From the IMG/VR virus record IMGVR_UViG_3300045256_000127: 64,000 bases of DNA, one strand, 5' to 3'. The number at the start of each line of letters is the position of its first letter. Position 1 is the first letter of the stretch. The translations under genes were made by a program, and so were the position numbers. This document shows positions 7,520-57,835 of the stretch, in pieces. The notes beneath the pieces are model-generated. The model was not told the origin of the DNA, made no database searches, and worked only from the letters and a program-made list of their open reading frames with translations. Source of the stretch: a virus. Lineage: Duplodnaviria > Heunggongvirae > Uroviricota > Caudoviricetes.

Positions 7520-7566
7520 TGTAAATCCCCCGAAAAGGTTTACCCTGTGTTATAGCAGGAAGTCCC

Positions 7567-7596
7567 TTGACAATCAATACTTTAAGCGAATATAAA
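7567..7596 (+). promoter_or_regulatory. sigma70-type promoter (TTGACA-N17-ATATAAA) driving a near-leaderless mRNA
   Basis: TTGACA at 7567-7572, a 17-nt spacer, then ATATAAA at 7590-7596. The predicted TSS falls at or next to the ATG at 7604. Confidence 0.55.
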
Positions 7597-7603
7597 GGGC
7601 AGT

Positions 7604-24007: not shown

Positions 24008-26068
24008 ATGGAAAAAACAGCATTGACCAAATACTCTGCGGGCTTCGACCGCAAGAAGTACCTCGAACTGAACCAAGAGATGAGCTATGACGAGTACATC
24101 GCTCACGCTCTGAAGAACCCTCGGGTCGCACGGAACGCATTTCAGTACATCTACGACATGATTATGTCGAAGGGCACTTCGGAGTTCGAGCGATACCGCA
24201 AGACCTACACCCACTATAACTTCTTCGACGATCCCAAGATTCCGATCTACGGTCTTGAAGAAACACTCGACCAATTGGTGAACTTTATCCACGGGGCAGC
24301 CGGTGGGTACGGCACCGAGAAGCGGGTACTCCTTCTCCACGGCCCGGTCGGATCGGCAAAGTCCACGATCTGCCGCTTGCTTAAGAAGGGGTTGGAAGAA
24401 TACTCCAAGACCCGTGAGGGTGCTTGGTACAGTTATAAGTGGGTTAATCTACCCACGGAAGGCGAGTTCGCCGTCTCCACGACGACGGAAGACCCGTGCC
24501 CGCTGCACGAAGACCCGAGTCGTCTGATGGACCCGGACCAGCGTGAAGCGTTCTTCGCCGACCTGAACCTGTCCCTGGCCGAAGCATCCGGCGGGGAGGC
24601 ACCGTACAAGCTCCGCAGCGAAGGGGAAATGTGCCCCCGGTGCAAGACGTACATGAAGATGCTGCTGAAGAAGTACGACGGCGATTGGGACAAGATCGTC
24701 CGTGACCACATCCGTGTCGTCCGGCTCGTCCACAGCGAGATCGACCGGGTTGGCGTCGGCACCTTCCAGCCGAAGGACGAGAAGAACCAGGACTCGACCG
24801 AACTGACGGGCGACCTGAACTTCGGCAAGGTGAGCCACTACGGGTCCGACTCGGACAGCCGTGCCTTCAACTTCGACGGCGAGTTCTGCGTTGCCAACCG
24901 TGGCGTGATGGAATTCATCGAAATGCTCAAGTTGAGCAACGAGTTCCTTTACGACCTGCTGGGTGCCTCGCAGGAACACAACATCAAGCCGAAGAAGTTC
25001 CCGCAGGTCAAGATCGACCAGTTCATCGTGGGCCACACCAACCACGCCGAACTCGAACGCCTGCAAGGCAACCGCTTCATGGAAGCCCTCCGTGACCGGA
25101 CGGTGAAGATCGACGTGCCGTACCTGCTCCGCTGGACGGACGAGATCAAGGTGCTGGAGAGCGACTACGGTCCAGGCAAGGTGAAGCAGCACATCATGCC
25201 GCACACCCTGGAGATCGCAGCCCTCTTCGCAATCCTCACCCGTCTGAAGGACGACAAGGACGTGAAGCTCGACCTTCGGGACAAGGCCAAGCTGTACGAC
25301 GGCCGGGCACTGCCGGGCTGGACGGAAGACTCGGTAAAGGAACTGAGGGACAAGTACCCGACGGAAGGTCTGGATCAGGGCGTGTCCGCACGTTACATCC
25401 AAGACAAGATTTCGAACTGCTTGGCTCGTAGCGTCAAGGGTTACGTCAACGTCTTCCACGTTCTGAACGAACTGAAGGCAGGGTTCTACAACTCGTCCAT
25501 GATTGATGTCGAACACATCAAGAAGTACGAGGAAGCCCTGGACTTGGCGATCAAGGAGCTTCAGGAAATCCTGAAGGCCGAGGTTCAGAAGGCGTTGGTG
25601 GCCGACGAGAACATCATCGAACGGGTCTGTGCCAAGTACATTGACAACGTGGTGGCGTATGTCAACAAGGAAAAGATCATCAACCCGATCACCAAGCAGC
25701 CCCAGGAGCCTGATGAGCGGCTGATGCGGAGCATCGAAGAGAAGATCGACATCCCCGAGCAAGGTGCCAACGACTTCCGCCGGAGCTTGGCGTCGTTCAT
25801 CGGGACGCTGACGATCAAGAAGAAGGAGTTCCGGTGGGACAGCAACCCGGAACTGCGGCGTGCCCTTGAGGCGAAGGTGTTCGAGGACACCAGGGACTCC
25901 ATCAAGCTGTCGGCCCTCACGGGCGAGGCAGCGGCAGCCGACCCGGACAGCCGGGAAAAGCTGGAGGCCATCAAGGTCCGACTCATCAACCAGTACGGGT
26001 ACAACGAACAGTCCGCCACGGACGTTCTGGAATACGTCGCCAGCCTGTTCACGGGCGGCACCGACTGA
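24008..26068 (+). CDS. prkA: PrkA/YeaG-family serine protein kinase (AAA+ N-domain)
   Basis: Collinear with E. coli YeaG: Walker A LLLHGPVGSAKST (YeaG LYLLGPVGGGKSS) and CVANRGVMEFIEMLK (YeaG CRANQGIMEFVEMFK). About 686 aa, as in PrkA. Confidence 0.85.
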   Translation: MEKTALTKYSAGFDRKKYLELNQEMSYDEYIAHALKNPRVARNAFQYIYDMIMSKGTSEFERYRKTYTHYNFFDDPKIPIYGLEETLDQLVNFIHGAAGGYGTEKRVLLLHGPVGSAKSTICRLLKKGLEEYSKTREGAWYSYKWVNLPTEGEFAVSTTTEDPCPLHEDPSRLMDPDQREAFFADLNLSLAEASGGEAPYKLRSEGEMCPRCKTYMKMLLKKYDGDWDKIVRDHIRVVRLVHSEIDRVGVGTFQPKDEKNQDSTELTGDLNFGKVSHYGSDSDSRAFNFDGEFCVANRGVMEFIEMLKLSNEFLYDLLGASQEHNIKPKKFPQVKIDQFIVGHTNHAELERLQGNRFMEALRDRTVKIDVPYLLRWTDEIKVLESDYGPGKVKQHIMPHTLEIAALFAILTRLKDDKDVKLDLRDKAKLYDGRALPGWTEDSVKELRDKYPTEGLDQGVSARYIQDKISNCLARSVKGYVNVFHVLNELKAGFYNSSMIDVEHIKKYEEALDLAIKELQEILKAEVQKALVADENIIERVCAKYIDNVVAYVNKEKIINPITKQPQEPDERLMRSIEEKIDIPEQGANDFRRSLASFIGTLTIKKKEFRWDSNPELRRALEAKVFEDTRDSIKLSALTGEAAAADPDSREKLEAIKVRLINQYGYNEQSATDVLEYVASLFTGGTD

Positions 26069-26086
26069 TAAGCAGTAGCCCTGAGA

Positions 26087-26116
26087 AAGCCCGGCCAAGT
26101 GCCGGGCTTTTTCTTT
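26087..26116 (+). terminator. rho-independent terminator
   Basis: aagcccggc-caagt-gccgggctt followed by tttctttaat. Confidence 0.65.
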
Positions 26117-26151
26117 AATAGGACTTCCAAATGTAAGCCGGATTGTGTAAT

Positions 26152-26601
26152 ATGTTGGGCATGGGTGTTAGTCCATTCAAGCGGTCTTCCTCCGGCCCCC
26201 GACGAGCGTACTACCCGTCCGGCCCCTGGATCGACGAAAACGGCAAGCCGTGCAAGTCGCCGACTTACGCTGCTTCCGATTACGACAAGAAGAAGCGGAA
26301 GAAGACGGAGCCGCCGAACCCCGACCCGCACAACTACAAGTTCGTGCGTGTCGAGGAAGCAGATGGATTTCTCTTAGTCCAACTCAATTATCCTGACTGC
26401 ACCAACTATGAGGGGAACAAGATTCTTCTCTTCAGGGGTGTGAAGCTGATCGATCTGGTCAACCAGAAATACATCGACCCACACTTCTTCCAAGCGAAGG
26501 ATATCGCCTCCCCCATTGCCCGCTTCGTCCCCACGGAAGAGGGTTGGAAAATGGGCCTTACTTTAATCACAGCGTTGAAAGCGAGTACGAATGCCTCGTA
26601 G
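26152..26601 (+). CDS. hypothetical protein inserted between prkA and yeaH homologues
   Basis: ORF with coding composition. Start is MLGMG or MGV. TAATAT -10-like element just upstream. Confidence 0.4.
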   Translation: MLGMGVSPFKRSSSGPRRAYYPSGPWIDENGKPCKSPTYAASDYDKKKRKKTEPPNPDPHNYKFVRVEEADGFLLVQLNYPDCTNYEGNKILLFRGVKLIDLVNQKYIDPHFFQAKDIASPIARFVPTEEGWKMGLTLITALKASTNAS

Positions 26602-27787
26602 AATTCAAGAAGACCACAAAGACTTCCGGGACGTTGTAGGCGGACGTGTCCGTAGGGAACTGAAGAAGTTCCTGAAAGGGAAGGTCGTCCGCCTACGACC
26701 GAAGAACGGGAAGCTCCAGTTCACCATCCCGCAGATCGACCAGCCGCACTTCCTCCACGGGGACAACGGCGAGGGCGTCGGCCGGGGCAAGGGTAAGAAG
26801 GGTCAGGTCATCGGCCAAGACCCGCAAGAGGGCGATCCGCAGGCTGGCGAAGAACACGCCGACGGGATCACCATCCAGGTCGATCTCGAAGAAGTGTTGA
26901 AGGTCATGCAGGAAGAACTCGGCCTGCCGGACCTGAAGCCGAAGCCGTCGGAAGTGTACGAGGAAGTCAAGACGGTTTACAACGACATCTCGAAGGTCGG
27001 CCCGGAATCGCTACGCCACACCCGCCGCACGATGTACGAGGCGATGAAGCGGATGGCGATGATGGGCACGCTGGGCGAGAAGAAGATGCTCCCCGGCCAC
27101 TCCGTCCCGATGCGGGTCATCACCCTGGCCGACGGGGACCGCCGCTACCGTCAGTACAAAGAGATCAAGATTCCGTCGTCGAACGCCGTGGTGTTCTTCA
27201 TCCGGGACTACTCCGGGTCGATGGACGACTTCCGCTGCGACATCGTTTCCGACATGTCCTGGTGGATCGACGTGTGGATTCGCAAGTTCTACGAGCGGGT
27301 AGAGCGGGTCTACATGATCCACGACACGGAGGCCGAAGAGGTAGACGAGAAGAAGTTCTACGAAGTCCGGTTCGGCGGCGGCACCAAGATTTCGTGTGCC
27401 TTCGACGAGGCGGCGAAGATGCTGGAGAACCGCTTCCCGGCCCACAACTACAACATCTACGTCATCTACTTCTCTGACGGCGACAATTGGGAAGAAGACA
27501 ACGCCAAAGTGTCCGACCTGTTGGGTAAGAAGTTCCCGCCGGAAGTGGTGAACATGGTCGGGTTCGTGCAGATTTGCACCTACAACTACTCACGCAGTAT
27601 CAAGAAGTTCGTTGACGAACAGATCAAGACCGGGGCCATCGGCAAGAACGTCCGCACGGTTACGATTGGTGAAGAGTCCTCCGACAGCAGCAGCATGTTC
27701 GGCGGCGGCACGCTCATGACGCCCGAGGAGCGGGACGAGCAAATCCTGAAGGGAATCAAGACTCTGTTCGGTAAGGAGAAGAACTAA
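26591..27787 (+). CDS. yeaH: YeaH/YhbH-family DUF444 protein (vWA-like)
   Basis: FIRDYSGSMDD (YeaH CLMDVSGSMDQ) and YVIYFSDGDNWEED (YeaH YAAQASDGDNWADD). Gly/Lys-rich N-terminus as in YeaH. Confidence 0.8.
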   Translation: MPRRIQEDHKDFRDVVGGRVRRELKKFLKGKVVRLRPKNGKLQFTIPQIDQPHFLHGDNGEGVGRGKGKKGQVIGQDPQEGDPQAGEEHADGITIQVDLEEVLKVMQEELGLPDLKPKPSEVYEEVKTVYNDISKVGPESLRHTRRTMYEAMKRMAMMGTLGEKKMLPGHSVPMRVITLADGDRRYRQYKEIKIPSSNAVVFFIRDYSGSMDDFRCDIVSDMSWWIDVWIRKFYERVERVYMIHDTEAEEVDEKKFYEVRFGGGTKISCAFDEAAKMLENRFPAHNYNIYVIYFSDGDNWEEDNAKVSDLLGKKFPPEVVNMVGFVQICTYNYSRSIKKFVDEQIKTGAIGKNVRTVTIGEESSDSSSMFGGGTLMTPEERDEQILKGIKTLFGKEKN

Positions 27788-29388
27788 TGGCTATCAGCAA
27801 AATGTTGAACGGTTCGCCTATCCTGATGGGCAACAACAACGTGCCGGGCGTTCGCATTCACAAAGAAGTCATGGATGTCATGGACACCATCTTCAGTGAA
27901 TGCCGTAAGTTCGGCCTGGACTTCTACCCAACCATCGTCGAGTTCTTGACCTACGACGAAATCTCCGAGATCGCCTCATACGGCGGCTTCCCGATCCGCT
28001 ACCCGCACTGGAGCTTCGGGATGGAGTACGAGGAACTGTCCCGTGGGTACGAGTACGGCATGCACCGGATCAGCGAGATGGTTGTGAACAACAACCCTTG
28101 CTACATCTACTGCCTGGACTCGAACACGCTGGTGGACAACATCGACGTGATCGCCCACGCCCTCGGCCACAACCACTTCTTCAAGAACAACGTGTTCTTC
28201 AAGGGGACGCACACCGGCATGATGGGCAAGTTCGCCGACCATGCCCGCCGCATCCGTAAGTACATGGCCCGGTGGGGCAAGGAGCGGGTGACGGAGTTCA
28301 TCGACCACTGCCTGCGGCTGAACACGCTCATCGACCCGATGGACAACCTGTATCAGAAGCAGATCAACGACGTGATCGTCAGCGACCACCGGGAATACCG
28401 GACGCCGAACCGCCGTCACGCCTCGTCGAACTACATGGACGACTGGATCAACCCGGTCGAGTACATCAAGAAGGAGAACGAGAAGATCGAAAAGGCGGAC
28501 GCCGCCGACTACCTGGACATCTTCGACAAGCCGAACCGTAACATCTTCGGCTATCTGCGTGACCACGCCCCGCTCAAACCGTGGCAGCAGGACATCATCA
28601 GCATGCTGTACGAGGAGGCAATGTACTTCTCGCCGCAGCGGTTGACGAAGATGTTGAACGAAGGGTTCGCCTCGTACACCGACTACTACCTGATGTGCGT
28701 CCACGGGCTGTGCGGCCTCGGCCAGAAGCGGCACGACATGGGCATCATCCAGTACGCCAAGCACAAGATGTTGGTTTTGGGCGGCAAGTACAGCCAGAAC
28801 CCTTACAAGCTGGGCTTCGAGCTACTGACCGACATCGAGGAGCGGTGGAACAAGGGCCGCTTCGGTCGGGAGTACGAGGAGTGCAAGAGCATGAAGGAGC
28901 GGGCCGAGTGGGACAAGAAGCTCGGGCTGGGCAAGGAGAAGGTGTTCGAAGTCTGCCAGTTCTACAACGACGCCCTGGCGATTGCGGAATTCTTCACGCC
29001 GGACTTCTGCGAGAAGATGGAATACTTCGAGTACAAGAAGTTTAATAACGGCCAGACGAAGATTCAGAGCCGGGACTACCATAGTATTAAGTCGCAACTC
29101 GTCCGGCGTTACATGAATGGCGGGTTGCCAGATATTCGTCTGACCGACCCGAACCACCTGGGCAAAGGCTGGTTCCTCATGCAGCACTACGGTTGCGGGC
29201 TGCCGCTGTACGATCCTTACGCAAAGGAAACGATCACATCGGTGTTCCGCATCTGGGGTAGCCCCGTGGTTCTGGCTACGAAGAACCCGGACGGTGAGGA
29301 ATTCGTCTACCTCTGCGATGGGACGAACTCCGAGAAGGATGTTCACGTCATGAGACGGGCGGACTACGAGAAGGAGTTTGTCAAATGA
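27787..29388 (+). CDS. spoVR: SpoVR/YcgB-family protein
   Basis: Length about 530 aa and several conserved SpoVR blocks (FPIRYPHWSFGMEYEEL, IAHALGHNHFFKNN, WQQDIISMLYEEAMYF). Start ATG overlaps the yeaH stop as TAATG. Confidence 0.8.
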   Translation: MAISKMLNGSPILMGNNNVPGVRIHKEVMDVMDTIFSECRKFGLDFYPTIVEFLTYDEISEIASYGGFPIRYPHWSFGMEYEELSRGYEYGMHRISEMVVNNNPCYIYCLDSNTLVDNIDVIAHALGHNHFFKNNVFFKGTHTGMMGKFADHARRIRKYMARWGKERVTEFIDHCLRLNTLIDPMDNLYQKQINDVIVSDHREYRTPNRRHASSNYMDDWINPVEYIKKENEKIEKADAADYLDIFDKPNRNIFGYLRDHAPLKPWQQDIISMLYEEAMYFSPQRLTKMLNEGFASYTDYYLMCVHGLCGLGQKRHDMGIIQYAKHKMLVLGGKYSQNPYKLGFELLTDIEERWNKGRFGREYEECKSMKERAEWDKKLGLGKEKVFEVCQFYNDALAIAEFFTPDFCEKMEYFEYKKFNNGQTKIQSRDYHSIKSQLVRRYMNGGLPDIRLTDPNHLGKGWFLMQHYGCGLPLYDPYAKETITSVFRIWGSPVVLATKNPDGEEFVYLCDGTNSEKDVHVMRRADYEKEFVK

Positions 29389-33008: not shown

Positions 33009-33091
33009 AGAAATTCGGCTAGGAAGCCGATACAATGGGCACGGGCGAAGATGCCCGTGCCTGTTTTGTTTCCAAACCAGGGAAGGTTAAC

Positions 33092-34462
33092 ATGTCGAAT
33101 ATGAAGCACCCCATCATGGGGTACGAGAACCTGCACCGCCACTCCGAGTACAGTCTGCTGGACGGGTTCGCAAAGGTCGGCGAGTACGCCGCCTACTCCA
33201 AAGAGGCAAACCAGCGTTACCTCTGCATCACCGACCACGGCGTCATGGGGGCCGTTCCGCAGCAGGTCGGCGAGTCCGAAAAGCACGGCCTGAAGCCCAT
33301 CTTCGGCATCGAGTTCTACATCAACCCGATGCAGCCCAAGTCCGAGTACCGTGAGCAGAACGCCGAATTCCGTAAGGGGTTGGGCACCGAGGAAGAACAG
33401 AAGCGGTTCGACAAGAGTCACCACCTGCTCGGCATCGCCCGCACCAACCAGGGCTACACCAACCTCGTGCGGCTGAGTACCTGGGCCTGGGTTCACGGCT
33501 ACTACCGTCGGCCCCGCATCAACCACGACATCCTGAATCAGTACAAAGAAGGGATCATCTTCACGAGTACCTGTGCCAACAGTGAAATCGCCAACGCCTT
33601 CTTCGACCACGGCGAGGAAGCGGGGATGGCGAAGGTGCAGCAGTACATCGACTTCTTCGGGAAAGAGAACTTCTTCCTCGAACTGATGATGCTCGACTTC
33701 AAGATGCAGAAGCCCTACGACGCCTTCCTGCTACGGGCGATGGATCGGTTCGGCCTGCAAGTCCTGCTCTCCACCGACTGCCACTACTGCAAGAAGGAAC
33801 ACGCCCTGAACCAGCGGATGATGCTCATGGTTCAGACGGGCCGGACCATGCAGGAGATCGAAGCCCTCGTCGCTTCGGGTGCGGCCGACGACCTGTTCGA
33901 GCTTCAGGACACGAACCTGTGGATGAAGACCGAAGATGAGATGAACCAGATGTGGGAGGAGAAGTACCAGGACACCATCGACTACGAAATCTTCAAGTGT
34001 GCGAAGGCGAACACGGTGAAGGTGTGCGAGATGTGTGCCGGGGTGCAGATCGACCGGGGCATCAAGCTGCCGATTGAGGAAGACGAAAAGAAGCAGTTGA
34101 TGAAGTTGATCCGGGAGGGCGTGGACCGGCGGAAGGTGCCGATGACCCGCCAGTACCTTGACCGAATCAAGGAAGAGTACCAACTGATCTGTGACAAGGG
34201 GTTCGCCTCGTACTTCCTGATTCAGAAGAAGATGGTGGATGAGGCGTTGCGGGTGTGCCCGGAGATTTACGGGTTTCAGGACTCGTCGATGGCCCGAGGG
34301 CCGGGGCGGGGGTCAGTAGGCGGCTCGCTGGTCGCCTACTGTCTGGACATTCACGATCTCGATCCGATCAAGCACGGGCTGCTGTTCTCTCGGTTCCTCA
34401 GCCCGGCTCGTGGTGGTAAGCAGATGAAAACTCGCTTCTCGCTTAGCCCCTGCGGCGGTTAA
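33092..34462 (+). CDS. dnaE: DNA polymerase III alpha (DnaE) N-terminal fragment: PHP domain to the GPGRGS helix
   Basis: PHP motif LHRHSEYSLLDG. DnaE hallmark GPGRGSVGGSLVAYCLDI...FLSPAR. Ends 16 aa after FLSPAR, before the catalytic PDxDxDF. Confidence 0.8.
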   Translation: MSNMKHPIMGYENLHRHSEYSLLDGFAKVGEYAAYSKEANQRYLCITDHGVMGAVPQQVGESEKHGLKPIFGIEFYINPMQPKSEYREQNAEFRKGLGTEEEQKRFDKSHHLLGIARTNQGYTNLVRLSTWAWVHGYYRRPRINHDILNQYKEGIIFTSTCANSEIANAFFDHGEEAGMAKVQQYIDFFGKENFFLELMMLDFKMQKPYDAFLLRAMDRFGLQVLLSTDCHYCKKEHALNQRMMLMVQTGRTMQEIEALVASGAADDLFELQDTNLWMKTEDEMNQMWEEKYQDTIDYEIFKCAKANTVKVCEMCAGVQIDRGIKLPIEEDEKKQLMKLIREGVDRRKVPMTRQYLDRIKEEYQLICDKGFASYFLIQKKMVDEALRVCPEIYGFQDSSMARGPGRGSVGGSLVAYCLDIHDLDPIKHGLLFSRFLSPARGGKQMKTRFSLSPCGG

Positions 34463-37545: not shown

Positions 37546-38277
37546 ATGTTCCCTAGCGGCATTAACGAACTGGCGAAGAATGTCCCTCTGCCGAAGTACC
37601 AGGAACTCCGCATCCTCCTGATGCCGATTGTCCTGGGGGACGCCAGCACGAACCCGTACCCCGACTGCAACCCGATGTTGGAAGTGATGGCAGCGGTCCA
37701 GCCCCAGCACAAGGGGAAGGTCTGTTACCTGACTATCGACCAGAAGGGTGTTCCGGCTGGGAAGACGCACCGTCGTGCCGGGCTGCACGTTGACGGCTAC
37801 CCGTACACCGAAGCCGACAAGCGGATGCTGGACGGCGGATACATTACCTCTGGCGCTGGCGGCATCTGGGCGGCAAACGCCCACGGCGGCACCTGGGGCG
37901 GTGGTGGTGGCTGGGGAGGCGGTAATTCCGCTCTCTACTGGCACATGGGTAACGGCTTGCTGACGGTTTCGAGCGTCGAGGGCTGTGTCGCCTGGAACCA
38001 GGAATTCCCCGGCGAGCCGAAGGTCGAAGGGGATTGTGAACATCTTCGGGAACACTGCAAGGAGGAGTGTAAGGTCGTACTCAAAGCGAATACCCTCTAC
38101 TGGATGAGTCCGGGGTGCGTCCACGAGTCGCTGCCGCAGCCGGTGGACGTGATCCGCACCTTCGTGCGGCTCTCGCTGCCGTCTAAGTGCGATTGGTACG
38201 AGGGTTGTACTCCGAACCCGCTCGGCGTGAAGCCGACGGGGAAGATCAGCCGCCGTCGCCGCTTCTTGGACGTGTAA
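37546..38277 (+). CDS. hypothetical protein; possible Fe(II)/2OG-dioxygenase-like HxD...H triad and a Gly/Trp-rich loop
   Basis: LHVDGYPY (HxD) ... GCVHES (distal H). A GGTWGGGGGWGGGN low-complexity insert. Weak. Confidence 0.45.
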   Translation: MFPSGINELAKNVPLPKYQELRILLMPIVLGDASTNPYPDCNPMLEVMAAVQPQHKGKVCYLTIDQKGVPAGKTHRRAGLHVDGYPYTEADKRMLDGGYITSGAGGIWAANAHGGTWGGGGGWGGGNSALYWHMGNGLLTVSSVEGCVAWNQEFPGEPKVEGDCEHLREHCKEECKVVLKANTLYWMSPGCVHESLPQPVDVIRTFVRLSLPSKCDWYEGCTPNPLGVKPTGKISRRRRFLDV

Positions 38278-38286
38278 TTTTTCTGG

Positions 38287-38315
38287 TTGACAATCACCGA
38301 ACCGAGGGTATAAAT
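38287..38315 (+). promoter_or_regulatory. consensus sigma70 promoter (TTGACA-N16/17-TATAAAT) for tmRNA
   Basis: TTGACA at 38287-38292 and TATAAAT at 38309-38315, about 12 nt upstream of the tmRNA 5' end. Confidence 0.65.
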
Positions 38316-38326
38316 AGGGTGTGCAT

Positions 38327-38720
38327 GGGGCCGCTCCGGTATCGAACCGGCGTCAACGGCCGAAAGGACTTGCGTAGTGGTTGGTCGGTGGGCCACTTAA
38401 AAAAGCCGACTAAGCCTTAACTGGCGATACTCTCAGAATGGCTGCCTGAGTTGTGCCCTCGCAAGGGGGCACCGCAATAGCGGCCAAATGAGTCTTCGGA
38501 CTCAGGGACTCACAGAAGCGATGCTCCAAGCGTCTGTGTTTCTCACGCCAAAAAGGAGACGAAGCCTAGTGAGTGTCGGTTGTAGCTAGGCGGGTCGCTA
38601 ACCGAGAATCCCGGTGGTTTTGCCAGTTGTACGGCACCGTGGATTATCAACAACTGGATACACGCATAAACGCCTTCGGAAGTTCGCTTGGTCACAGGGG
38701 TTCGACTCCCCTCGGCTCCA
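38327..38720 (+). ncRNA. ssrA: tmRNA (SsrA)
   Basis: 5' GGGGCCGCUCCGGUAUCGAAC and 3' GGGGUUCGACUCCCCUCGGCUCCA are collinear with the E. coli tmRNA ends. The acceptor stem pairs with a G3-U70 wobble (alanine identity). CCA is not encoded. About 394 nt. Confidence 0.75.
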
Positions 38721-38728
38721 CTAAGAAA

Positions 38729-38770
38729 ACCCTCCGGCTCCACTGAAAAGTGGCCGGAGGGTTTCTCTTT
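38729..38770 (+). terminator. rho-independent terminator
   Basis: ccctccggc...gccggaggg stem followed by tttctctttt. Confidence 0.7.
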
Positions 38771-38776
38771 TAGTGC

Positions 38777-39337
38777 ATGTCTACAACACAAGTCACCTGT
38801 GCCCACTGCGGCACGTCATTCTCCAAACGCACAGCAGAAGTTAATCGCTCAGTCAAGCTGGGCCGTAAACACTACTGCAATCGTTCTTGCATGGGGAAAG
38901 ACCAACTCGACCACATGCCGTTAGTAAAGCGTGCCAATGCCCAGCACCTTCGAGGCCACGAGAGCAACCGCAAAGACGAGTACAGCCCGTTCCGCTGGCA
39001 CTTCCGCAATGCGATCCGCCGCTCACAAGAGTCGGATCGCAAAGAATGCACGATCACCCTCGATGATCTGAAGAAGCAGTGGGACGACCAGAAAGGAAAG
39101 TGCCCGTACACTGGCTGGGAACTAAAGAACCTGCCAGATACCAACACCAAGAAGCAGCTTCCTCTTACACCAGACCGTGCGAGCCTGGACCGAAAGGATT
39201 CGTCAAAGGGATACGTCCCCGGCAACATCCAGTTCGTCTCGACGATGGCGAACTACGCCAAAAACCGCTGGGGAGATCAAGAGCTATTCGAGTTCTGTGC
39301 TGCGGTTTACAAGGGGCATGTTTCGGGTAAAATGTAG
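38777..39337 (+). CDS. HNH-family homing-endonuclease-like protein (HNH_3 type) with an N-terminal zinc ribbon
   Basis: CAHCG...C..C N-terminus. C-terminal ASLDRKDSSKGYVPGNIQFVS matches the SLDRIDNSKGYxxGNV block of phage HNH_3 endonucleases. Confidence 0.6.
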   Translation: MSTTQVTCAHCGTSFSKRTAEVNRSVKLGRKHYCNRSCMGKDQLDHMPLVKRANAQHLRGHESNRKDEYSPFRWHFRNAIRRSQESDRKECTITLDDLKKQWDDQKGKCPYTGWELKNLPDTNTKKQLPLTPDRASLDRKDSSKGYVPGNIQFVSTMANYAKNRWGDQELFEFCAAVYKGHVSGKM

Positions 39338-39353
39338 CAGATAGGAGGACAAC

Positions 39354-40445
39354 ATGCCAGCGAAGAAGACGTACTCAGAAGTCGTTAAGTTCTTCCAAAA
39401 ACAAGGCCATACACTCCTCACTGAAACCTACCTCGGTTGTAATCAAACTCTCACTTTCAAGTGTCGTTGCGGCGGCACCGGCACCACTACGTTCGCTATG
39501 ATGCGTGCTATCGTCAACCGGGGGAATACGTCTGGTTGTAAAGAATGCCGTGGTGATCGCATCGGCGTCTCCAGCCGATTTACTATTGAGCATGCCAAAC
39601 AAGTCTATGCCGATGCAGGCTGCAAGCTACTAGAAGATCAATACGTCAACCACATCACCCCTATGCGGTACATCTGCTTCTGCGGACGTGAGGGGCGGAC
39701 GAGCTACAACTATTTCACCCAGCACGGGCGGCATTGTAAACAATGCGGTTTTGAAAAACGCACTGAGAAAATCAAGTTCTCCCAAGAGGAGGTTGAAGCT
39801 ATCTTCGAAGCAGAGAACTGTCTCCTCCTCGGCACATACACCGGCTATCACGATTACATTGATTACATCGCTCAATGTAATCACAAAAGTAACGTCACCC
39901 TACAGTATTTCCGAGTCGGGGGCGGTCGGCAGTGCTGGAAGTGCAGTTGGGAAAACAGGGGGTGGCGTGGCCCAGACTGGACTTTCGAGCAGGTCCGTGA
40001 TTACGTCGCCTCCCACGGCTGCGTGCTGCTCTCCACCAGCTACAGCGGCGTGAAAGACCAGATTGAGTACCGCTGCATCTGTGGGTTTCAAACCGAAATC
40101 CGATTCAGCAACTTCAAAGAAGGACACCGTTGCAAAGAATGTTCCAACCGGCTCGGTGGAGATCGCAGGCGGCACTCCTTCGAATTCGTCAAACTCTTCT
40201 TCCAAGAAGCGGGGTGCCGACTCCTCGCCGATGAGTACGTCGGAAAGGACACGGTGATGCCCTACATCTGCGTTTGCGGTCGAAAATCCAAAATCTGCTT
40301 CGCCAGCTTCGCCCGAGGGAGTCGCTGTAAAGACTGTGGGTTCGTGAAGATCAGTGAATCACAACAACTCGCTCGGCGGCTCTGGGAGGAGGCAGAACTA
40401 GGCGATCTGGACAAAATTCTCTCAGACCGCTTGCGTTGTGATTGA
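39354..40445 (+). CDS. tandem-repeat Cys4 zinc-ribbon module protein (about 7 modules)
   Basis: Repeated about 48-aa module: F..(Q/E)GC.LL...Y......(M/L).Y.C.CG(R).......F..G.RC..CG. Confidence 0.55.
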   Translation: MPAKKTYSEVVKFFQKQGHTLLTETYLGCNQTLTFKCRCGGTGTTTFAMMRAIVNRGNTSGCKECRGDRIGVSSRFTIEHAKQVYADAGCKLLEDQYVNHITPMRYICFCGREGRTSYNYFTQHGRHCKQCGFEKRTEKIKFSQEEVEAIFEAENCLLLGTYTGYHDYIDYIAQCNHKSNVTLQYFRVGGGRQCWKCSWENRGWRGPDWTFEQVRDYVASHGCVLLSTSYSGVKDQIEYRCICGFQTEIRFSNFKEGHRCKECSNRLGGDRRRHSFEFVKLFFQEAGCRLLADEYVGKDTVMPYICVCGRKSKICFASFARGSRCKDCGFVKISESQQLARRLWEEAELGDLDKILSDRLRCD

Positions 40446-40495
40446 GTTGTGTTTAAGATGTGTTTGTGTTGAGGAGACGAGGCAAGGAGGCCGGA

Positions 40496-41407
40496 ATGAG
40501 GAGGCTGACATTCGAGTTCGTGCGGGATGAATTCCGCAAGGCGGGTTGCACACTCCTAGCGACCAGCTACTCCCGCAACAGCGAAAAGCTTCCTTATATC
40601 TGCAAGTGTGGTCGTCGGTCGCAGATCACTTGGAATAAATTCAAAGAAGGGCAACGGTGTTATGATTGCCGCAATCGCAAGATCGGCGATTGCAAACGGA
40701 CCGACTACGAAGATGTGGTCGCATATTATTACGACCAGCAATGTACCCTGCTTGCGGATAAGTATCACGATTGTGATACCCCGATGCCGTTCATTTGTGT
40801 CTGCGGCAGAGAAGGTATAACCACCTTCTATAACTTCAAACATCTTGGGGTTCGATGTCTCGCTTGTGCCCACGAGAAGACGGGGGACGCATATAGGTAT
40901 ACCCTTGAGCAAGTTAAGGAATTCTTTCTCGATCAAGGGTGTGTACTTCTTGCAGATAAGTATGTAAATGCCTTCACAGTGATGCCTTACCTGTGTCATT
41001 GTGGAAGGTATGCCGAGATCATTTGGAATTCCTTCCAACGGGGGAACAGGTGTAAGGCGTGTGGTATCGAAAAAATTGCGAATGACCGGAAGTTCAGCTA
41101 CGAATATGTCAAGATGTACTTTGAGGGGCGGGGGTGTACCCTCCTATCTTCCGAGTATGTCAACTCTCAGACGCCACTGGAGTACCGTTGTGCCTGTGGC
41201 GAAATTGCTAAAGTAACCTTCAACCGCTTTACCTCTCAGGGATCGCTGTGTTGGAGTTGCCGTGATCGTAGAGCATGGCAGGTACGTCGAGAGAACGAGA
41301 AGCTGTGGAATGAGTCCAACTTGGACGCAGACCTTGACCGATTACTCACAGAGAGGTGCCGTGGAGAGCAGGCATCCCTCTTAAACAACGCTCTCAAGGA
41401 GAAGTAA
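40496..41407 (+). CDS. tandem-repeat Cys4 zinc-ribbon module protein (paralogue, about 6-7 modules)
   Basis: Same module as the upstream gene. CAAGGAGG RBS then MRRLTFEFVRDEF. Confidence 0.55.
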   Translation: MRRLTFEFVRDEFRKAGCTLLATSYSRNSEKLPYICKCGRRSQITWNKFKEGQRCYDCRNRKIGDCKRTDYEDVVAYYYDQQCTLLADKYHDCDTPMPFICVCGREGITTFYNFKHLGVRCLACAHEKTGDAYRYTLEQVKEFFLDQGCVLLADKYVNAFTVMPYLCHCGRYAEIIWNSFQRGNRCKACGIEKIANDRKFSYEYVKMYFEGRGCTLLSSEYVNSQTPLEYRCACGEIAKVTFNRFTSQGSLCWSCRDRRAWQVRRENEKLWNESNLDADLDRLLTERCRGEQASLLNNALKEK

Positions 41408-41408
41408 C

Positions 41409-42140
41409 ATGGCGGCACACATGAACGAAGTTGGCACCGAGGCGAAGGCGATCCTGGCCGACGTGGGCAAGATCGGCAAGCGGGTGATGGAGCAATACTA
41501 CCGGGGCTTCCTGGCAGCCCTGCACGATGTCCATAAGGGCTGGCGGCATCTCAAGCCCCGTGAGCGGAAGGTCGTGTTCGAGAAGGTGCAGGACACGGCG
41601 AAGGAACTCATCGTCTGCAAGGAGGACGGCGGCGGGGCCGACGACGGCTTGGCCCTGGGCACTTTCCACGGGTACGTCTGCAAAATCAAGCGTGCCCTGA
41701 TCTTCAACGTTCCGCTGGAGATCGCCGAGCGGGCGACGAACCAGGAACTCCAAAAGGCCCAGGTGTACGTCAACGACGTGCTTAAGGAATCGCCACAACC
41801 GCTCGAAGACAAGATGGTTCTGGCCTACAAGTGGGTCAAGGAGGAACAGATCAAGGCGAAGCAGCGGTTGAAAGAAGAGGCCGACAGGCTCATCAACCAA
41901 CCGACTGCGGCCACCCTGGAGACGGCATACACCCTGCCCGATCCCGATCAGTATAAGGAGGAGGATTCAGACGCCCTGCTCAACGACATCATCCACGGCA
42001 TCCATGCGTGTTTGACCAGTCGGGGGCTGAAGCCGCATCTGACGAAGGATACCCCGGCGGCACGAGTGCTTCGGCGGGTTCTCGGCGAAATCTCGGTGTA
42101 CGAGACTTTGGGCGAATCGCCCTGCACGGCCGCTGGCTAA
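41409..42140 (+). CDS. hypothetical protein
   Basis: 243-aa ORF. A stem-loop follows at 42150-42178. Confidence 0.45.
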   Translation: MAAHMNEVGTEAKAILADVGKIGKRVMEQYYRGFLAALHDVHKGWRHLKPRERKVVFEKVQDTAKELIVCKEDGGGADDGLALGTFHGYVCKIKRALIFNVPLEIAERATNQELQKAQVYVNDVLKESPQPLEDKMVLAYKWVKEEQIKAKQRLKEEADRLINQPTAATLETAYTLPDPDQYKEEDSDALLNDIIHGIHACLTSRGLKPHLTKDTPAARVLRRVLGEISVYETLGESPCTAAG

Positions 42141-45486: not shown

Positions 45487-46554
45487 ATGAACGAAAACGC
45501 TGAACTCAACCAGATGCTTTCGAAGGCTTGCAGCAGCGGGATGCCCGCTGTAAAGAGCAGCCGTCCTCCCCGTGGTCGTGACTACGACGACGATGACGAC
45601 GAGTTCGAGGATCAGGTTACTCAGTCGTACTCTCAGTGGACGACGAGCAACGGCCGGGTGTTCGTGCCCGCCTCCACCACCAAGAACAAACTGCCGCCGG
45701 GCGTCTACGAGATCGACAGCAGCCCGAACATCGGTTTGTACTTCGAGAAGATTCCGGTCAAGACCGAAGGTCTGCTCCGCTTCCCGGATACCAACTCCGA
45801 CAAGGTGGTGGACGAAATCCAGCGGTTCTGGACGCTCGAAGAGAAGTTCAAAGAGTACAGCCTTGCCTACAAGCGGGGCATCCTGCTCTGGGGTCCGCCG
45901 GGGTCGGGCAAGTCCTGCACCCTGCAACTCATCATGGCCGACGTTATCAAACGTGGCGGGCTGGTGGTGAAGTTCGACGACCCGTACCTCTTCATCGACG
46001 GCATGCGGGTGCTTCGCCGCATCCAGCCGGAAACGCCGGTCGTCGTGATGCTCGAAGACATCGATAGCATCATCAAGATGTACAACGAGTCCGAGGTTCT
46101 GAACATCCTCGACGGCGTTAACGAGACGAACCGGATGGTGTTCCTGGCGACCACCAACTACCCGGAGGAGCTTGGGCACCGCATCGTCAACCGGCCGAGC
46201 CGGTTCGACAAGCGGTTCAAGATCGGGTTCCCGTCCGCCGCAAGCCGGAAGATGTACTTCGAACACCTGATCGGCGGCAAGAAAAAGGTGAAGGAACTCG
46301 GAATTGACCTAAAGCAATGGGTCACGGACACCGATAAGTTCTCCATCGCCCACCTGAAGGAACTGTTCATCGCAGTACACATCCTCGGCGACAACTACGA
46401 GGAGGCGGTCAAGACCCTGCAATCCATGCGGGAGGACATCGACACTCGGGAGAGTGACGACATGATGTCCAACATCTTCACCGGCCGGAAGACTAACAAG
46501 GAAGAGGACGTTGCGTACTATGACGATGACGGTGACGACTCCTGCGGCGGGTAA
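45487..46554 (+). CDS. AAA+ ATPase (classical AAA family)
   Basis: Walker A GILLWGPPGSGKS, Walker B VVVMLEDIDS, and second region of homology TTNYPEELGHRIVNRPSRFDKRF. Confidence 0.8.
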   Translation: MNENAELNQMLSKACSSGMPAVKSSRPPRGRDYDDDDDEFEDQVTQSYSQWTTSNGRVFVPASTTKNKLPPGVYEIDSSPNIGLYFEKIPVKTEGLLRFPDTNSDKVVDEIQRFWTLEEKFKEYSLAYKRGILLWGPPGSGKSCTLQLIMADVIKRGGLVVKFDDPYLFIDGMRVLRRIQPETPVVVMLEDIDSIIKMYNESEVLNILDGVNETNRMVFLATTNYPEELGHRIVNRPSRFDKRFKIGFPSAASRKMYFEHLIGGKKKVKELGIDLKQWVTDTDKFSIAHLKELFIAVHILGDNYEEAVKTLQSMREDIDTRESDDMMSNIFTGRKTNKEEDVAYYDDDGDDSCGG

Positions 46555-46625: not shown

Positions 46626-49286
46626 ATGAAGGAACGTGACGAACTGGTAGCCCTGCTGGAAGCGGCTTTGGACGCAAAGGGCTTACGGAACGATCAGTAC
46701 ACAAATCGACTGGCTCTCGAACTGAAAGAACTCGACGTTCTTGAAGAACACGAATACTTTCTCAAGCTGCACAAAGAGGGGAAGAAGTACCCTGAGAACG
46801 AGAACAACCTTCTCGTCCCATATCTGCTCGACCTGTGCCCCGACTTCGACATCAACCGGGAACCCGCCTACAACCAGGGCGAGTTCCCCGACATCGACAT
46901 GGACTACCTGCCGCTCGTCCGTGACCACTTGAAGAACGAGTGGGCGGTGAAGGAGTACGGCCGGGATTACGTCTGCTCCATCGGCACCTACGGCACCCTG
47001 GGCATCAAGGCAGCCATGCTCGACATGGCCCGTGTCCACGGCGTCCCGAAGGACGAAGTGCAGATGGTTACGAAACAGGTCGAAGACAAGGACGACGAAG
47101 GCGAGCCGATGGAGTGGGACAAGGCTCTCGAACTCTACGCCGACTTCAAGGCGTTCTGCGAGCGGCACCCGGACGTGGCCGCAGCCGCCAAGATGATGCT
47201 GGACCGGAACAAATCGGGCGGCGTCCACGCCGGGGGACTCATCATCTCCTCCAAGCCGATCCAAGACTTCGTGCCGCTCGAAGTGCGGTCAGTGAAGAAG
47301 GAGAACAAGCACGGCGTCCTCGTCTCGGCGTGGTGCGAGGGGCAGGCCACCCAGGACTTGCAGCCGGTCGGGCTGGTGAAGTTCGACTTGCTGGTGGTGG
47401 ACGGGTTGATGCAGATCGCCCAGGCGTGCGAACTCATCCGCCAGCGGCACGGCATCGAGCGGATCAACGCCCTGCCGGGCGGGCGGAACTGGAGCGACAC
47501 GGCCTACCTCAACGACCCGAAGGCGTTGGCGATGGCGAACAAGGCCGACCTGAAGTGCGTGTTCCAGTTCGGGTCGGACGGCATCCGGGCGATGGTCAAG
47601 CGGGGCGGCGTGACGAGCTTCGACGACCTGATGGCGTACTCGGCCCTCTACCGCCCCGGCCCGCTGAACATGGGGATGGATAAGCACTACTGCGACCGGA
47701 AGAAGGGGATCGAGCAGTGGAGCATCCACCCGCTGCTCATGCCGATCCTGGGGCGGACTTACGGGGTTCTTGTTTACCAAGAGCAGTGTATGCAAGTCCT
47801 CCACACGGTAGGACTCATCCCGCTCATTCACTGCGAGAAGGTCCGCAAGGCCATCTCGAAGAAGAAGATCGCCCTGTTCGCCAAGTACAAGGACATGTTC
47901 ATTACGAACGGTCAGAAGGTACTCGGCGAGAGCGAGGAGTTCGTCCGTGACCTGTGGGACCAGATCGAGGCGTTCGCCGACTACGGCTTCAACGCCAGCC
48001 ACAGTTGTGCGTACACCTACATCTCCTCCCGGCAGTTGTGGCTCAAGGCCCACTACCCGCTGGAGTATTACACTGCGGTCCTGATGTGCGAAGACCAGTC
48101 GGACAAGATTAAGGAGATCAAGCAGGACGCCCGGAAGCACGGCATCGAAGTCAAGCCGGTGCATATCAACCACAGCCGGGAACTGTTCCGCATCGTGGAC
48201 AACGACATCTACTACGGGTTCAGTAACCTGAAGAAAGTCGGCGAGGCGGTGGCGAAGCGGATCGTGGCGGGGCAACCCTACGCCTCGTTCGAGGACTTCC
48301 TGCAACGGTTCGGGACCGACATGCAGGTGTTGAAGCCGCTCATCTCCCTCGGCGTGTTCGAGGAGAAGGTGGACCGGATCACGCTGTACAAGTTCTACGA
48401 CAAGTACAGCGATTGGCTCAAGAAGTGTAAGAGCCGGGACAAGCGGTTCGAGGAGAGCCAAGCCAAGTACGAAACCGAACTCCGGGAACTGCTGAAGCAG
48501 TACGGGGCGGACGAGAAGGAAGTCGAGGCGATGGCCCGGTTCGACGATGATGTCATCAGTGAATGGGAAGCCCGGTTCGGCAACATCAAGGTCGAACAGC
48601 AGTACAAGTACAAGGGCGAGATGCGGACCCGTGAAGTGTCCGTGGTCAAGTTCATGACCGACATCCACGGGCGGCGGAACAAGGGCGTGCGAGGCCAGGA
48701 GGAGAAGACCCGGCTCGACCAAGAGGAACCGCCGACCCTGGCGACCTTCAACGCTAAGACGTGGCCGCTGGAGCAGGCGATCATCGAACTGCTCTCCGAC
48801 GAGAAGGCAGCCGAACAGGAATACTACGGCTTCCAGTGGGTACACGACCTGGAAGAAAGCCCCGACTACGAAGGGTTCACCATCGACCGCTTCACCGAGG
48901 TTGTGGCGAACCGGAAGGAGCCGAGGGGTGCCATCGAGGTTAAGGTACTCCAGGTGACGAAGCGGGAGTTCAAGACCGGCACCATCGCCTACGACGTGAA
49001 GGTGGAAGACGCCAACGGCAAGGTGGTGATCGTCCGGTTCTGGAGCGACGACTACACCCGGTTCCAAGAGGAGATCACGCCCGGTGCGCTCCTACGGCTG
49101 CACGTCAAGCCGCCGGAAGGGTTCCCGAGCTATTCCTTCTGGGCACCGCCGAAGCACCTGCGGCACCGGCTTGTCCCGAAGGATAAGAGCCTGGACGACC
49201 GGCTGTACGTCCTGACGCCGGGGGCGAAGAAGGTTGTCGTGCAAGAGGAGAAACCGGAAGAGGGATTCGAACTGATGGAAGCCTGA
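46626..49286 (+). CDS. dnaE: DNA polymerase III alpha (DnaE) C-terminal fragment: catalytic palm, fingers and OB fold
   Basis: PDIDMDY...YGRDYVCSIGTYGTLGIKAAMLDMARVHG (E. coli PDFDVDF...[29 protein letters not shown]), HAGGLIIS (E. coli HAGGVVIA), and a C-terminal OB-like domain. Confidence 0.85.
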   Translation: MKERDELVALLEAALDAKGLRNDQYTNRLALELKELDVLEEHEYFLKLHKEGKKYPENENNLLVPYLLDLCPDFDINREPAYNQGEFPDIDMDYLPLVRDHLKNEWAVKEYGRDYVCSIGTYGTLGIKAAMLDMARVHGVPKDEVQMVTKQVEDKDDEGEPMEWDKALELYADFKAFCERHPDVAAAAKMMLDRNKSGGVHAGGLIISSKPIQDFVPLEVRSVKKENKHGVLVSAWCEGQATQDLQPVGLVKFDLLVVDGLMQIAQACELIRQRHGIERINALPGGRNWSDTAYLNDPKALAMANKADLKCVFQFGSDGIRAMVKRGGVTSFDDLMAYSALYRPGPLNMGMDKHYCDRKKGIEQWSIHPLLMPILGRTYGVLVYQEQCMQVLHTVGLIPLIHCEKVRKAISKKKIALFAKYKDMFITNGQKVLGESEEFVRDLWDQIEAFADYGFNASHSCAYTYISSRQLWLKAHYPLEYYTAVLMCEDQSDKIKEIKQDARKHGIEVKPVHINHSRELFRIVDNDIYYGFSNLKKVGEAVAKRIVAGQPYASFEDFLQRFGTDMQVLKPLISLGVFEEKVDRITLYKFYDKYSDWLKKCKSRDKRFEESQAKYETELRELLKQYGADEKEVEAMARFDDDVISEWEARFGNIKVEQQYKYKGEMRTREVSVVKFMTDIHGRRNKGVRGQEEKTRLDQEEPPTLATFNAKTWPLEQAIIELLSDEKAAEQEYYGFQWVHDLEESPDYEGFTIDRFTEVVANRKEPRGAIEVKVLQVTKREFKTGTIAYDVKVEDANGKVVIVRFWSDDYTRFQEEITPGALLRLHVKPPEGFPSYSFWAPPKHLRHRLVPKDKSLDDRLYVLTPGAKKVVVQEEKPEEGFELMEA

Positions 49287-56653: not shown

Positions 56654-57028
56654 ATGGCTAACGTAACTAATGTGCGGGTCGAGTTGAAGCCGGGCCGTGG
56701 TAACGACTACCACGACCGTGACCGGGCCTTCAAGATCATGCTGGCCCTCTTCAAGAGGAAGGTCGCCGACGCCGGGGTCTTGTCTCAGTACAAGGATCAC
56801 GAGGCTTATGTGTCCCCGTCCCGCAAGGCACGCCTGAAGATGCGTGCCACGGTCCAGGCGAGGAAGCTCGATGAGATCGAGGGCAAGCTGCGTCGGGGTG
56901 AGCCGATTGAGAAAGACAAGAATTTGGTGAAGAAAGTCCAGACCCGAATGAAGAAGAAGAAACAACGTAAAGACAAGCAGCGTGACGGTGGTTACAACTT
57001 CAACTACCGGGAGTACGCTGATAGTTAA
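56654..57028 (+). CDS. rpsU: ribosomal protein bS21 homologue with a Lys-rich C-terminal extension
   Basis: VRVELKPGRGNDYHDRDRAFKIMLALFKRKVADAGVLSQYKDHEAYVSPSRKARLK parallels bacterial S21 (I.V.....ALRRFKR.cekaGvL.E.rr.e.YEKPsekrkR). AAGGAGA RBS. Confidence 0.65.
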   Translation: MANVTNVRVELKPGRGNDYHDRDRAFKIMLALFKRKVADAGVLSQYKDHEAYVSPSRKARLKMRATVQARKLDEIEGKLRRGEPIEKDKNLVKKVQTRMKKKKQRKDKQRDGGYNFNYREYADS

Positions 57029-57358: not shown

Positions 57359-57835
57359 ATGAAACTGGTTGCACCGGAAGACATCCCTCTGGGGGAGATC
57401 GTACCGCTCGACAACAAGGCCAAAATCTACAACATCTTCACCAATATGATTAAGATGTGTGAAGAGAAAGAAGGGATTGGCCTATCGGCGGTACAGGTCG
57501 GCCTGCCATACAAGATGTTTGTCGTCAAAGACGGCGACAAATACAGGTGTTTCCTGAACTGCGATTACGAACCGACTACCGAAGCTAAACGAACGTTGTC
57601 CCTCGAAGGGTGCCTGTCTCTGCGGTCGCTAGACGGTCGCTTGCGATTCTTCGAGGTTGAGCGGTGGGACCAGATCAAGGTATCTGGAACCGAATTTTGT
57701 TTATCATCTATTGATTTTATATTTGGTTTTATTGAGTGCGTCAGTTCCCCCTTGTGCGTTGTGTTTCAACATGAGATTGACCACGACAAGGGGGTTCTGA
57801 TCTCTCAGATAGGCAAGGAAGTATCGCTCTTTTGA
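57359..57835 (+). CDS. def: peptide deformylase
   Basis: Three PDF motifs: GIGLSAVQVG, EGCLS and QHEIDH (HExxH). Confidence 0.8.
   Translation: MKLVAPEDIPLGEIVPLDNKAKIYNIFTNMIKMCEEKEGIGLSAVQVGLPYKMFVVKDGDKYRCFLNCDYEPTTEAKRTLSLEGCLSLRSLDGRLRFFEVERWDQIKVSGTEFCLSSIDFIFGFIECVSSPLCVVFQHEIDHDKGVLISQIGKEVSLF

Follow-up and report, generated by a model that had tools for sequence, protein, structure and literature searches.

Transfer-messenger RNA (tmRNA, or SsrA) is already known from phages, including the Bxz1-group and Wildcat mycobacteriophages, Bacillus phage G and DS6A – the last with an RNA reduced to the tRNA-like domain (TLD) (PMC4131195) – and the translation genes reported from huge phages include tmRNA and SmpB as well as bS21 and peptide deformylase (PMC7162821). 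This analysis concerns a tmRNA gene in a 64,000-nucleotide (nt) stretch of viral DNA, hereafter called the window (IMG/VR record IMGVR_UViG_3300045256_000127, Caudoviricetes). As tmRNAs in large phages are known, the gene adds a well-documented case and leaves the knowledge of tmRNA and of huge phages unchanged. We read it, with a probability of roughly 0.8, as a functional one-piece tmRNA gene of a huge phage, inherited within a phage lineage rather than freshly captured.

The window tmRNA is collinear with Escherichia coli SsrA and the Rfam family RF00023 in its acceptor stem with the G3·U70 pair, T-arm, helix 2 and first pseudoknot (PK1), in the U(-5) A(-4) context of the resume codon, in a tag ending in AA with the stop near helix 5, and in pseudoknots PK2-PK4. 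Unlike E. coli SsrA, it is encoded by a phage, resumes on GGC (Gly) rather than GCA (Ala), and specifies a tag of 8 rather than 10 codons that ends in RMAA rather than ALAA. It differs further in its enlarged helix 5 and an extra UUCG hairpin, in not encoding CCA and in having no smpB nearby, and its D-loop region reads GGUAUCGA where the RF00023 consensus has GGaUUCGA. With the other known large-phage tmRNAs it shares being a complete gene in a phage rich in translation-related genes, although those phages belong to unrelated lineages with unrelated hosts, and no nucleotide similarity was detectable in the phage collection. The tmRNA-like RNA of DS6A is likewise phage-encoded and has the tRNA-like domain of tmRNA, but comprises little beyond it and has been proposed to titrate SmpB (PMC4131195), whereas the window RNA has a full mRNA-like domain and four pseudoknots.

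The tmRNA gene, its structure and its tag

The gene is real, intact and complete. ARAGORN called a single standard (non-permuted) tmRNA at 38327-38721 (+), with the tag GDTLRMAA*, as the sole tRNA-like gene within the window, and RF00023 matched 38327-38723 (+) from end to end (model positions 1-374 of 374) at 79.4 bits (E = 3.5e-29), the gathering score of the family being 47 bits. Two independent detectors thus agree on a full-length one-piece tmRNA where the original prediction, which had named both as checks, had placed a phage tmRNA (38327-38720). Folded as a single sequence, the RNA closes its acceptor and T stems (z = -2.99), and at the sequence level the features of the one-piece class are present, namely the covariance-model score, the tRNA-like domain, PK1, the tag frame and PK2-PK4. 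A two-piece (permuted) tmRNA was considered and rejected, as ARAGORN gives a standard gene and the one-piece model is matched end to end; so was a TLD-only RNA of the DS6A type, given the full tag frame and PK1-PK4.

An 18-helix model of the RNA, built with the Rfam alignment as guide and numbered in tmRNA positions from the mature 5' end, is fully canonical in all 18 helices, PK1-PK4 included, and uses no base twice. The features are as follows.

38327-38720 (+): mature tmRNA, 394 nt from the 5' G to the discriminator A (ARAGORN, RF00023 and fold)
38327-38333 (+): 5' strand of the acceptor stem, GGGGCCG, pairing with CGGCUCC at 38713-38719, G3·U70 included; 7 of 7 pairs canonical
38346-38375 (+): 5' strands of helix 2, tmRNA positions 20-26, 34-41 and 45-49, with partners at 38662-38692
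38376-38412 (+): PK1, with stem 1 AGUGG/CCACU (50-54 with 67-71) and stem 2 UGGUCGGU/GCCGACUA (56-63 with 79-86)
38423-38449 (+): tag frame GGC GAU ACU CUC AGA AUG GCU GCC UGA, GDTLRMAA and stop (ARAGORN and Rfam alignment)
38439-38486 (+): enlarged helix 5 in three parts, its base stem at positions 113-119 with 154-160
38489-38504 (+): extra hairpin UGAGUC-UUCG-GACUCA, lineage-specific, an insertion relative to the Rfam model
38505-38558 (+): PK2, a hairpin at positions 179-218 whose loop CUCC pairs with GGAG (198-201 with 229-232)
38564-38605 (+): PK3, with stem 1 GCCUAGU/GCUAGGC and stem 2 UCGGUU/AACCGA
38612-38657 (+): PK4, with stem 1 CGGUG/CACCG and stem 2 CCAGUUG/CAACUGG
38696-38712 (+): T-arm AGGGG-UUCGACU-CCCCU, a 5-base-pair stem with the 7-nt loop UUCGACU (RF00023 and helix model)

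The anatomy first read from the letters – a pairing acceptor stem, the T-arm, an untemplated CCA – is borne out by the sequence and this model, as is the folding of the four pseudoknots that had been proposed as a further check. The discriminator A38720 is followed in the genome by CUA (38721-38723), not CCA, so CCA must be added post-transcriptionally. The tRNA-like domain has no anticodon arm, helix 2 was modelled as three segments, and the stop codon of the tag lies within an internal loop of helix 5. The hairpin at the tip of helix 5, GUGCCCUC-GCAA-GGGGGCAC with its GNRA cap, is an insertion common only to the window and its closest relative, locus L080, and the same holds for the extra UUCG hairpin. 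The modest Rfam score is explained by these insertions and not by broken helices.

The reading frame of the tag is fixed by a conserved block, UAACUGGCGA(A/U)ACUC, with its U(-5) A(-4) context; it is identical in the window, L080 and the related loci L083 and L084-L086, and L089 shows a one-base change (UAACC). UAACU stands directly 5' of GGC (compare UAGUC in E. coli), and ARAGORN and the Rfam alignment concur on GGC at 38423-38425 as the resume codon. In E. coli, it is A86 at position -4 that is best conserved among the upstream bases and that chiefly determines the frame (PMC2481249). Counting the tmRNA-borne alanine, the predicted appended tag is AGDTLRMAA. The original prediction had offered ALTGDTLRMAA as a candidate tag, which is right in frame but starts three codons too early. 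The GCC that it took as the resume codon, placed at about 38399, sits at 38414; it was rejected in this role, as it lacks the U(-5) A(-4) context and becomes CGC in L083.

The tags of the family are GDTLRMAA, GETLRLAA, GETRYALAA, GETQLALAA, GDFGLRKAA and ANPEFAMAA; every one ends in AA and then a stop, and the residue preceding the terminal AA is M, L or K. The lysine at this place in GDFGLRKAA, the tag of locus L091, is unusual for a degradation tag. Other IMG/VR viral contigs (L020, L046, L051, L042 and L035/L039/L050/L056) carry tmRNAs amid tRNA arrays, some of them called permuted by ARAGORN, with the tags ATTKAAPMRMAA, ANRMAMAA, VTNTNGNTMRLAA, AAPAALAA and ANESLMAVAA; MAA is a recurring tag ending in phage tmRNAs. 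Among Bacteroidota, tmRNA tags such as GETYALAA, GENNYALAA and GEESYAMAA start with GE, which may hint at a Bacteroidota host.

That the structure is under selection is shown by an alignment of 8 sequences, about 50% identical, on a specified structure of 42 pairs that includes both PK1 stems. On this structure 96.4% of cells are paired, compared with 35-44% when partners are slid by 1-3 columns; 27 of the 42 pairs show both-sided changes (64 cells), and in none of 500 column shuffles was any of the five measures equalled. RNAalifold recovered the acceptor stem, T-arm, helix 2 and PK1 stem 2, with 29 of 50 pairs kept through both-sided changes. The acceptor stem has G·U at pair 3 in all 8 sequences and covaries at pairs 4-6, and the T stem covaries at 4 of 5 pairs with 100% of cells paired. 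Compensatory changes are found in 7 of 7 pairs of helix 2 segment H2a and 4 of 5 of H2d; both-sided changes occur in 3 of 5 pairs of PK1 stem 1 (100% of cells paired) and 5 of 8 of stem 2 (96.8%).

Between the window RNA and that of L080 there are 14 compensatory changes and 3 changes on one side that leave the pair intact; another 6 are disruptive, most of them at helix ends or alignment gaps. For PK3 and PK4 the compensatory evidence comes from this comparison, more distant relatives being not alignable there: one change in PK3 stem 2 (G-C to A-U at 253:276) and two in PK4 stem 2 (C-G to U-A at 297:331 and 298:330). Six lineages pair the PK2 loop with downstream sequence at equivalent positions, although the paired sequences are unrelated (GUCAG/CUGAC, GUUCG/CGAAC, GAAGGG/UCCUUC, GCUUG/CAGGC and others).

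Within PK4 (region 38622-38657, positions 296-331), CC at 297-298 is UU in L080, and both of its candidate partners change too, GG at 307-308 (local hairpin) and GG at 330-331 (pseudoknot stem) each being AA there. These paired changes hint that two alternative pairings may be possible.

The gene has its own putative promoter and terminator.

38287-38292 (+): -35 hexamer TTGACA, identical in L080 (sequence and own scan)
38309-38316 (+): TATAAATA, containing the -10 element TATAAA (38309-38314) at a 16-nt spacer from the -35 hexamer (sequence and own scan)
38727-38772 (+): intrinsic terminator, a G+C-rich stem-loop with perfect 12-nt arms (38727-38764), then the U-rich tract UUUCUCUUUU

The sigma70 promoter proposed in the original prediction, TTGACA-N16-TATAAA, agrees with the consensus at 11 of 12 positions; the one departure is at the final position of the -10 hexamer, where a T is usually conserved, and because of it a standard promoter scan did not list the site. 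Both hexamers are identical in L080, where the -10 element is kept as GGGTATAAATAG and the 16-nt spacer differs at most positions. Our own scan of the window gave 3 sites with at least 11 of 12 matches, against 0.25 expected, and 9 with at least 10 of 12, against 2.8 expected, 8 of the 9 on the coding strand. It had also been suggested that TATAAATA is a T4 late-promoter octamer. It occurs once in the window (0.10 expected), so it is not a recurring phage promoter class here, and a T4-late-type promoter was rejected.

The terminator is as strong as first claimed (-28.2 kcal/mol, z = -6.05, none of 200 shuffles as stable). Terminators of differing sequence stand at the same place in L080, L083, L089, L091 and L068; in L084-L086 there is no hairpin in the 3' flank read. 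A second copy of the final 20 nt of the gene (38708-38727; the 3' strands of the T stem and acceptor stem, then ACUAAGAA) lies 22 nt downstream at 38730-38749, where it makes up the terminator's 5' arm; the two match at 80% without gaps, or with a single indel. L080 lacks this repeat, which could stem from a duplication, from a past integration event at the tmRNA 3' end or from chance.

Relatives and probable inheritance in the phage lineage

In contigs that encode the closest relatives of the AAA-ATPase of the window (45487-46554), a tmRNA is always present in the corresponding interval, between the gene for an ADP-ribosylglycohydrolase upstream and those for the AAA-ATPase and DnaE-C, the C-terminal piece of a split DnaE, downstream.

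L080/L081: AAA-ATPase identity 90%; tmRNA at 93 bits; tag GDTLRMAA
L089/L090: AAA-ATPase identity 67%; tmRNA by ARAGORN; tag GETLRLAA
L083: AAA-ATPase identity 65%; tmRNA at 115 bits; tag GETRYALAA
L091: AAA-ATPase identity 64%; tmRNA at 7395-7801, 103 bits (Rfam), missed by ARAGORN; tag GDFGLRKAA

In all of these the tmRNA lies between the gene for DnaE-N, or that for the ADP-ribosylglycohydrolase, and AAA/DnaE-C, and in L068 it lies beside AAA-DnaE. Identity of the RNA to that of the window is 83% for L080 and about 50% for all other relatives aligned. This divergence tracks that of the AAA-ATPase protein (83% at 90%; about 50% at 65-67%), which fits inheritance in the phage lineage better than repeated capture, although replacement of the tmRNA at the same locus may also have occurred. 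The tag GDTLRMAA is identical in the window and L080 although their RNAs are 83% identical, and CCA is encoded in no member of the family, the genes reading ACUA, AUUU, ACUG, ACUU or AUCC. In our reading the tmRNA is thus not a one-off capture but a gene at a fixed position in one clade, with purifying selection on its structure and tag.

The best match of the window in the phage collection is LR756511.1 (SR-VP_PHAGE_COMPLETE_CIR-CU-CL_42_23), a curated complete circular huge-phage genome of 595,163 bp (Al-Shayeb et al. 2020; PMC7162821), of which L068 is the locus compared. By tblastx the two are collinear on both sides of the tmRNA, over about 40 kb in all; in the window, the flanking collinear stretches are 24.0-29.4 kb and 45.6-64.0 kb.

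L068 10.4-15.8 kb: collinear with window 24.0-29.4 kb
L068 18.3-19.2 kb: collinear with the window AAA-ATPase gene, 45.6-46.5 kb
L068 DnaE gene: collinear with the two DnaE pieces of the window
L068 24.7-31.7 kb: collinear with window 54.4-64.0 kb

The tmRNA of LR756511.1 (L068 17755-18109; 122 bits; tag ANPEFAMAA) lies 240 nt upstream of the AAA-ATPase gene. It resembles that of the window in standing directly upstream of the same AAA-ATPase and DnaE genes, in not encoding CCA, and in having a TTGACA-type promoter and a terminator. It differs in sequence (48% RNA identity, no blastn match) and in its tag, ANPEF... as opposed to G[DE]... in the window lineage, where moreover DnaE is split and the tmRNA lies between the halves. 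The published taxonomic profile of LR756511.1, 82% unknown with Proteobacteria weakly first, is uninformative on the host.

Three additional metagenome contigs with a tmRNA, one of them 372 kb long, were recovered with a pattern that combines the conserved 5' end and the resume block; the tmRNAs there carry the tag GETQLALAA and stand amid tRNA arrays, in surroundings unrelated to those of the window. A blastn search of the tmRNA region against 50,697 phage records gave no match, neither the 5' tRNA-like pattern nor the resume-block pattern had a hit in scans of viral contigs, and a search of viral contigs with either neighbouring protein of the tmRNA found no relatives.

Proposed function and alternative readings

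If the gene works as its structure suggests, host RNA polymerase with its primary sigma factor would transcribe it, probably from early infection. RNase P would remove a 5' leader of about 5-6 nt, the 3' trailer would be trimmed, and a CCA-adding enzyme would then supply CCA where the gene reads CUA. Charged with alanine by the host alanyl-tRNA synthetase through G3·U70, the tmRNA would enter, with SmpB and EF-Tu, ribosomes that have run to the 3' end of a broken or stop-less mRNA and stalled there. AGDTLRMAA would be appended to the nascent chain, the ribosome would terminate at UGA, and host proteases that act on C-terminal tags would clear the truncated products. The predicted benefit to the phage – more free ribosomes while host and phage mRNAs decay – fits the presence of bS21 (56654-57028) and peptide deformylase (57359-57835) in the same genome. 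Both genes, named in the original prediction, are present, and the theme of a takeover of translation that it drew from them is confirmed through them, as already described for huge phages (PMC7162821).

Several points weigh against this reading. What lies beyond sequence and covariation – expression, charging and tagging – we infer. The -10 hexamer lacks the consensus final T, and the variation between M, L and K before the terminal AA means that recognition by the usual proteases is not assured. With CCA encoded in no family member, function depends on a CCA-adding enzyme, and none was seen in the window open reading frames (ORFs) scanned; many bacterial tRNA and tmRNA genes depend on this enzyme as well. 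As for SmpB, searches with the E. coli protein (phmmer and tblastn) found no homologue in the window, and there was none in 340 kb of related loci. It is encoded by other huge phages, namely Lak phages and LR745206.1, LR756502.1, LR756503.1 and LR756504.1 (genomes of 634-735 kb besides Lak), and LR756511.1 is not among the matches listed for SmpB-carrying phage records (68 records covered). The SmpB used may be that of the host, or a phage copy outside the window; host SmpB would suffice for the window tmRNA.

The same absence of SmpB from the window and related loci can be turned to another account, in which the phage RNA would draw on the host pool and vie with host tmRNA for SmpB and stalled ribosomes, retagging proteins to an altered fate (a different protease, or escape from an adaptor) or damping host trans-translation. 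The short, lineage-specific tag family, whose residue before the final AA varies and is once lysine, would suit such competition, and the TLD-only tmRNA of phage DS6A, proposed to titrate SmpB, offers a precedent (PMC4131195). Yet ordinary tagging needs a full mRNA-like domain, a frame-setting context, a terminal AA and a stop codon, and all of these are conserved; sequence alone does not separate competition from supplementation, and a difference between phage and host tags is hypothetical. We regard competition as quite unlikely. A related proposal is that of a phage-specific tmRNA lineage, kept at one locus since before these huge phages diverged, whose own tag family (G-[D/E]-...-[L/M/K]-A-A) would send the products of stalled ribosomes to an end of the phage's choosing instead of only adding to host rescue capacity. 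It leans on the common locus, the in-step divergence of RNA and protein and the conserved resume block; as these do not bear on the fate of tagged proteins, we consider it unlikely too, if slightly less so. The window tmRNA is in any case a clean candidate for asking whether such genes supplement or subvert host trans-translation, and the tag family, together with the unencoded CCA, could help to link these uncultured phages to their hosts, given candidate host tmRNAs.

Two further accounts deny the gene a role in the phage, and both seem to us very improbable. One takes it for a bacterial ssrA with a prophage integrated at its 3' end, or for the remnant of an attachment (att) site. Ends of tmRNA genes are indeed common integration sites, the 20-nt direct repeat 22 nt downstream would be in keeping with such an event, and a scan of viral contigs with the 3' end found 67 with an exact copy of it, often at the end of a contig and lacking the remainder of the gene. 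These 67 loci have in common with the window gene only its last 24-37 nt, and are att-like fragments or unrelated tmRNAs. The flanks of the window gene, however, are collinear with the curated complete genome of LR756511.1 on both sides and no base-composition boundary lies near it, which together exclude a bacterial ssrA beside a prophage. A tmRNA stands at the same locus in five related phage lineages, and the 5' tRNA-like pattern occurs in no bacterial species representative beyond 6 chance hits, none of them a tmRNA. As the gene is whole, with its own promoter and terminator, and no integrase was seen among its neighbours, an ssrA att-site fragment was rejected. The other account sees a captured gene in decay, without current function, and can point to 79 bits in Rfam as against 93-122 in relatives, to the two extra hairpins and to the missing CCA. 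The lower score is accounted for by the helix 5 insertions, not by broken helices. Compensatory changes extend along the whole structure, neither G3·U70 nor the resume block varies, promoter and terminator are likewise kept, and the tag has stayed that of L080 despite only 83% RNA identity. The reading of a functional, lineage-inherited tmRNA gene is the one that we retain.

Neighbouring genes

In gene content the window is phage-like, with a DnaE-type polymerase and a helicase, a UvsX-like recombinase, ThyX, an ADP-ribosylglycohydrolase and a dNMP kinase; its PHROG matches are to DnaE, the UvsX-like recombinase, the helicase and homing endonucleases. Directly downstream of the tmRNA, where an HNH_3 endonuclease had been predicted, the ORF at 38777-39337 matches endonuclease and HNH families in PHROG, so the endonuclease stands, but the assignment to HNH_3 does not, there being no match to this Pfam family at E <= 0.01. 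Three consecutive HNH-like endonuclease ORFs (38777-39337, 39354-40445 and 40460-41407) and an ORF at 41409-42140 fill about 4 kb right after the terminator and are absent from L080. Equally absent from L080 is a 243-residue ORF just upstream of the tmRNA promoter (37546-38277), whose family counts 433 homologues at varied positions in huge-phage contigs. It was rejected as a tmRNA-linked gene, its relatives in L069, L070 and L072 having no tmRNA beside them. We read the endonuclease ORFs, the ORF at 41409-42140 and the 243-residue ORF as insertions around a conserved core, with no functional tie to the tmRNA.

The tmRNA also lies within the split of DnaE (Pol III alpha), whose N piece (33035-34462; the PHP domain and the start of the polymerase domain) and C piece (46626-49286; the remainder) are 12.2 kb apart on the same strand. 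The split is common to L080, L083, L089 and L091, and LR756511.1 has a single gene (L068 20001-23420). A split intein seems unlikely, the N piece having just about 17 residues beyond the break.

Genes for a PrkA kinase, DUF444 and SpoVR form a trio at 24008-29388, collinear in LR756511.1, which we take to resemble the bacterial yeaG-yeaH-ycgB stress operon. The bS21 homologue is 124 residues long, and its Pfam S21 domain covers residues 30-69, leaving extensions at both the N and the C terminus; extended S21 proteins have been reported for huge phages (PMC7162821). Finally, on a 622-kb JGI contig (L070 1-20741), 28 tRNA-like genes form a dense array adjoined by a gene for a Ro60/TROVE-like protein, and ARAGORN reads several of them with four-base anticodons (ttta, ttaa).

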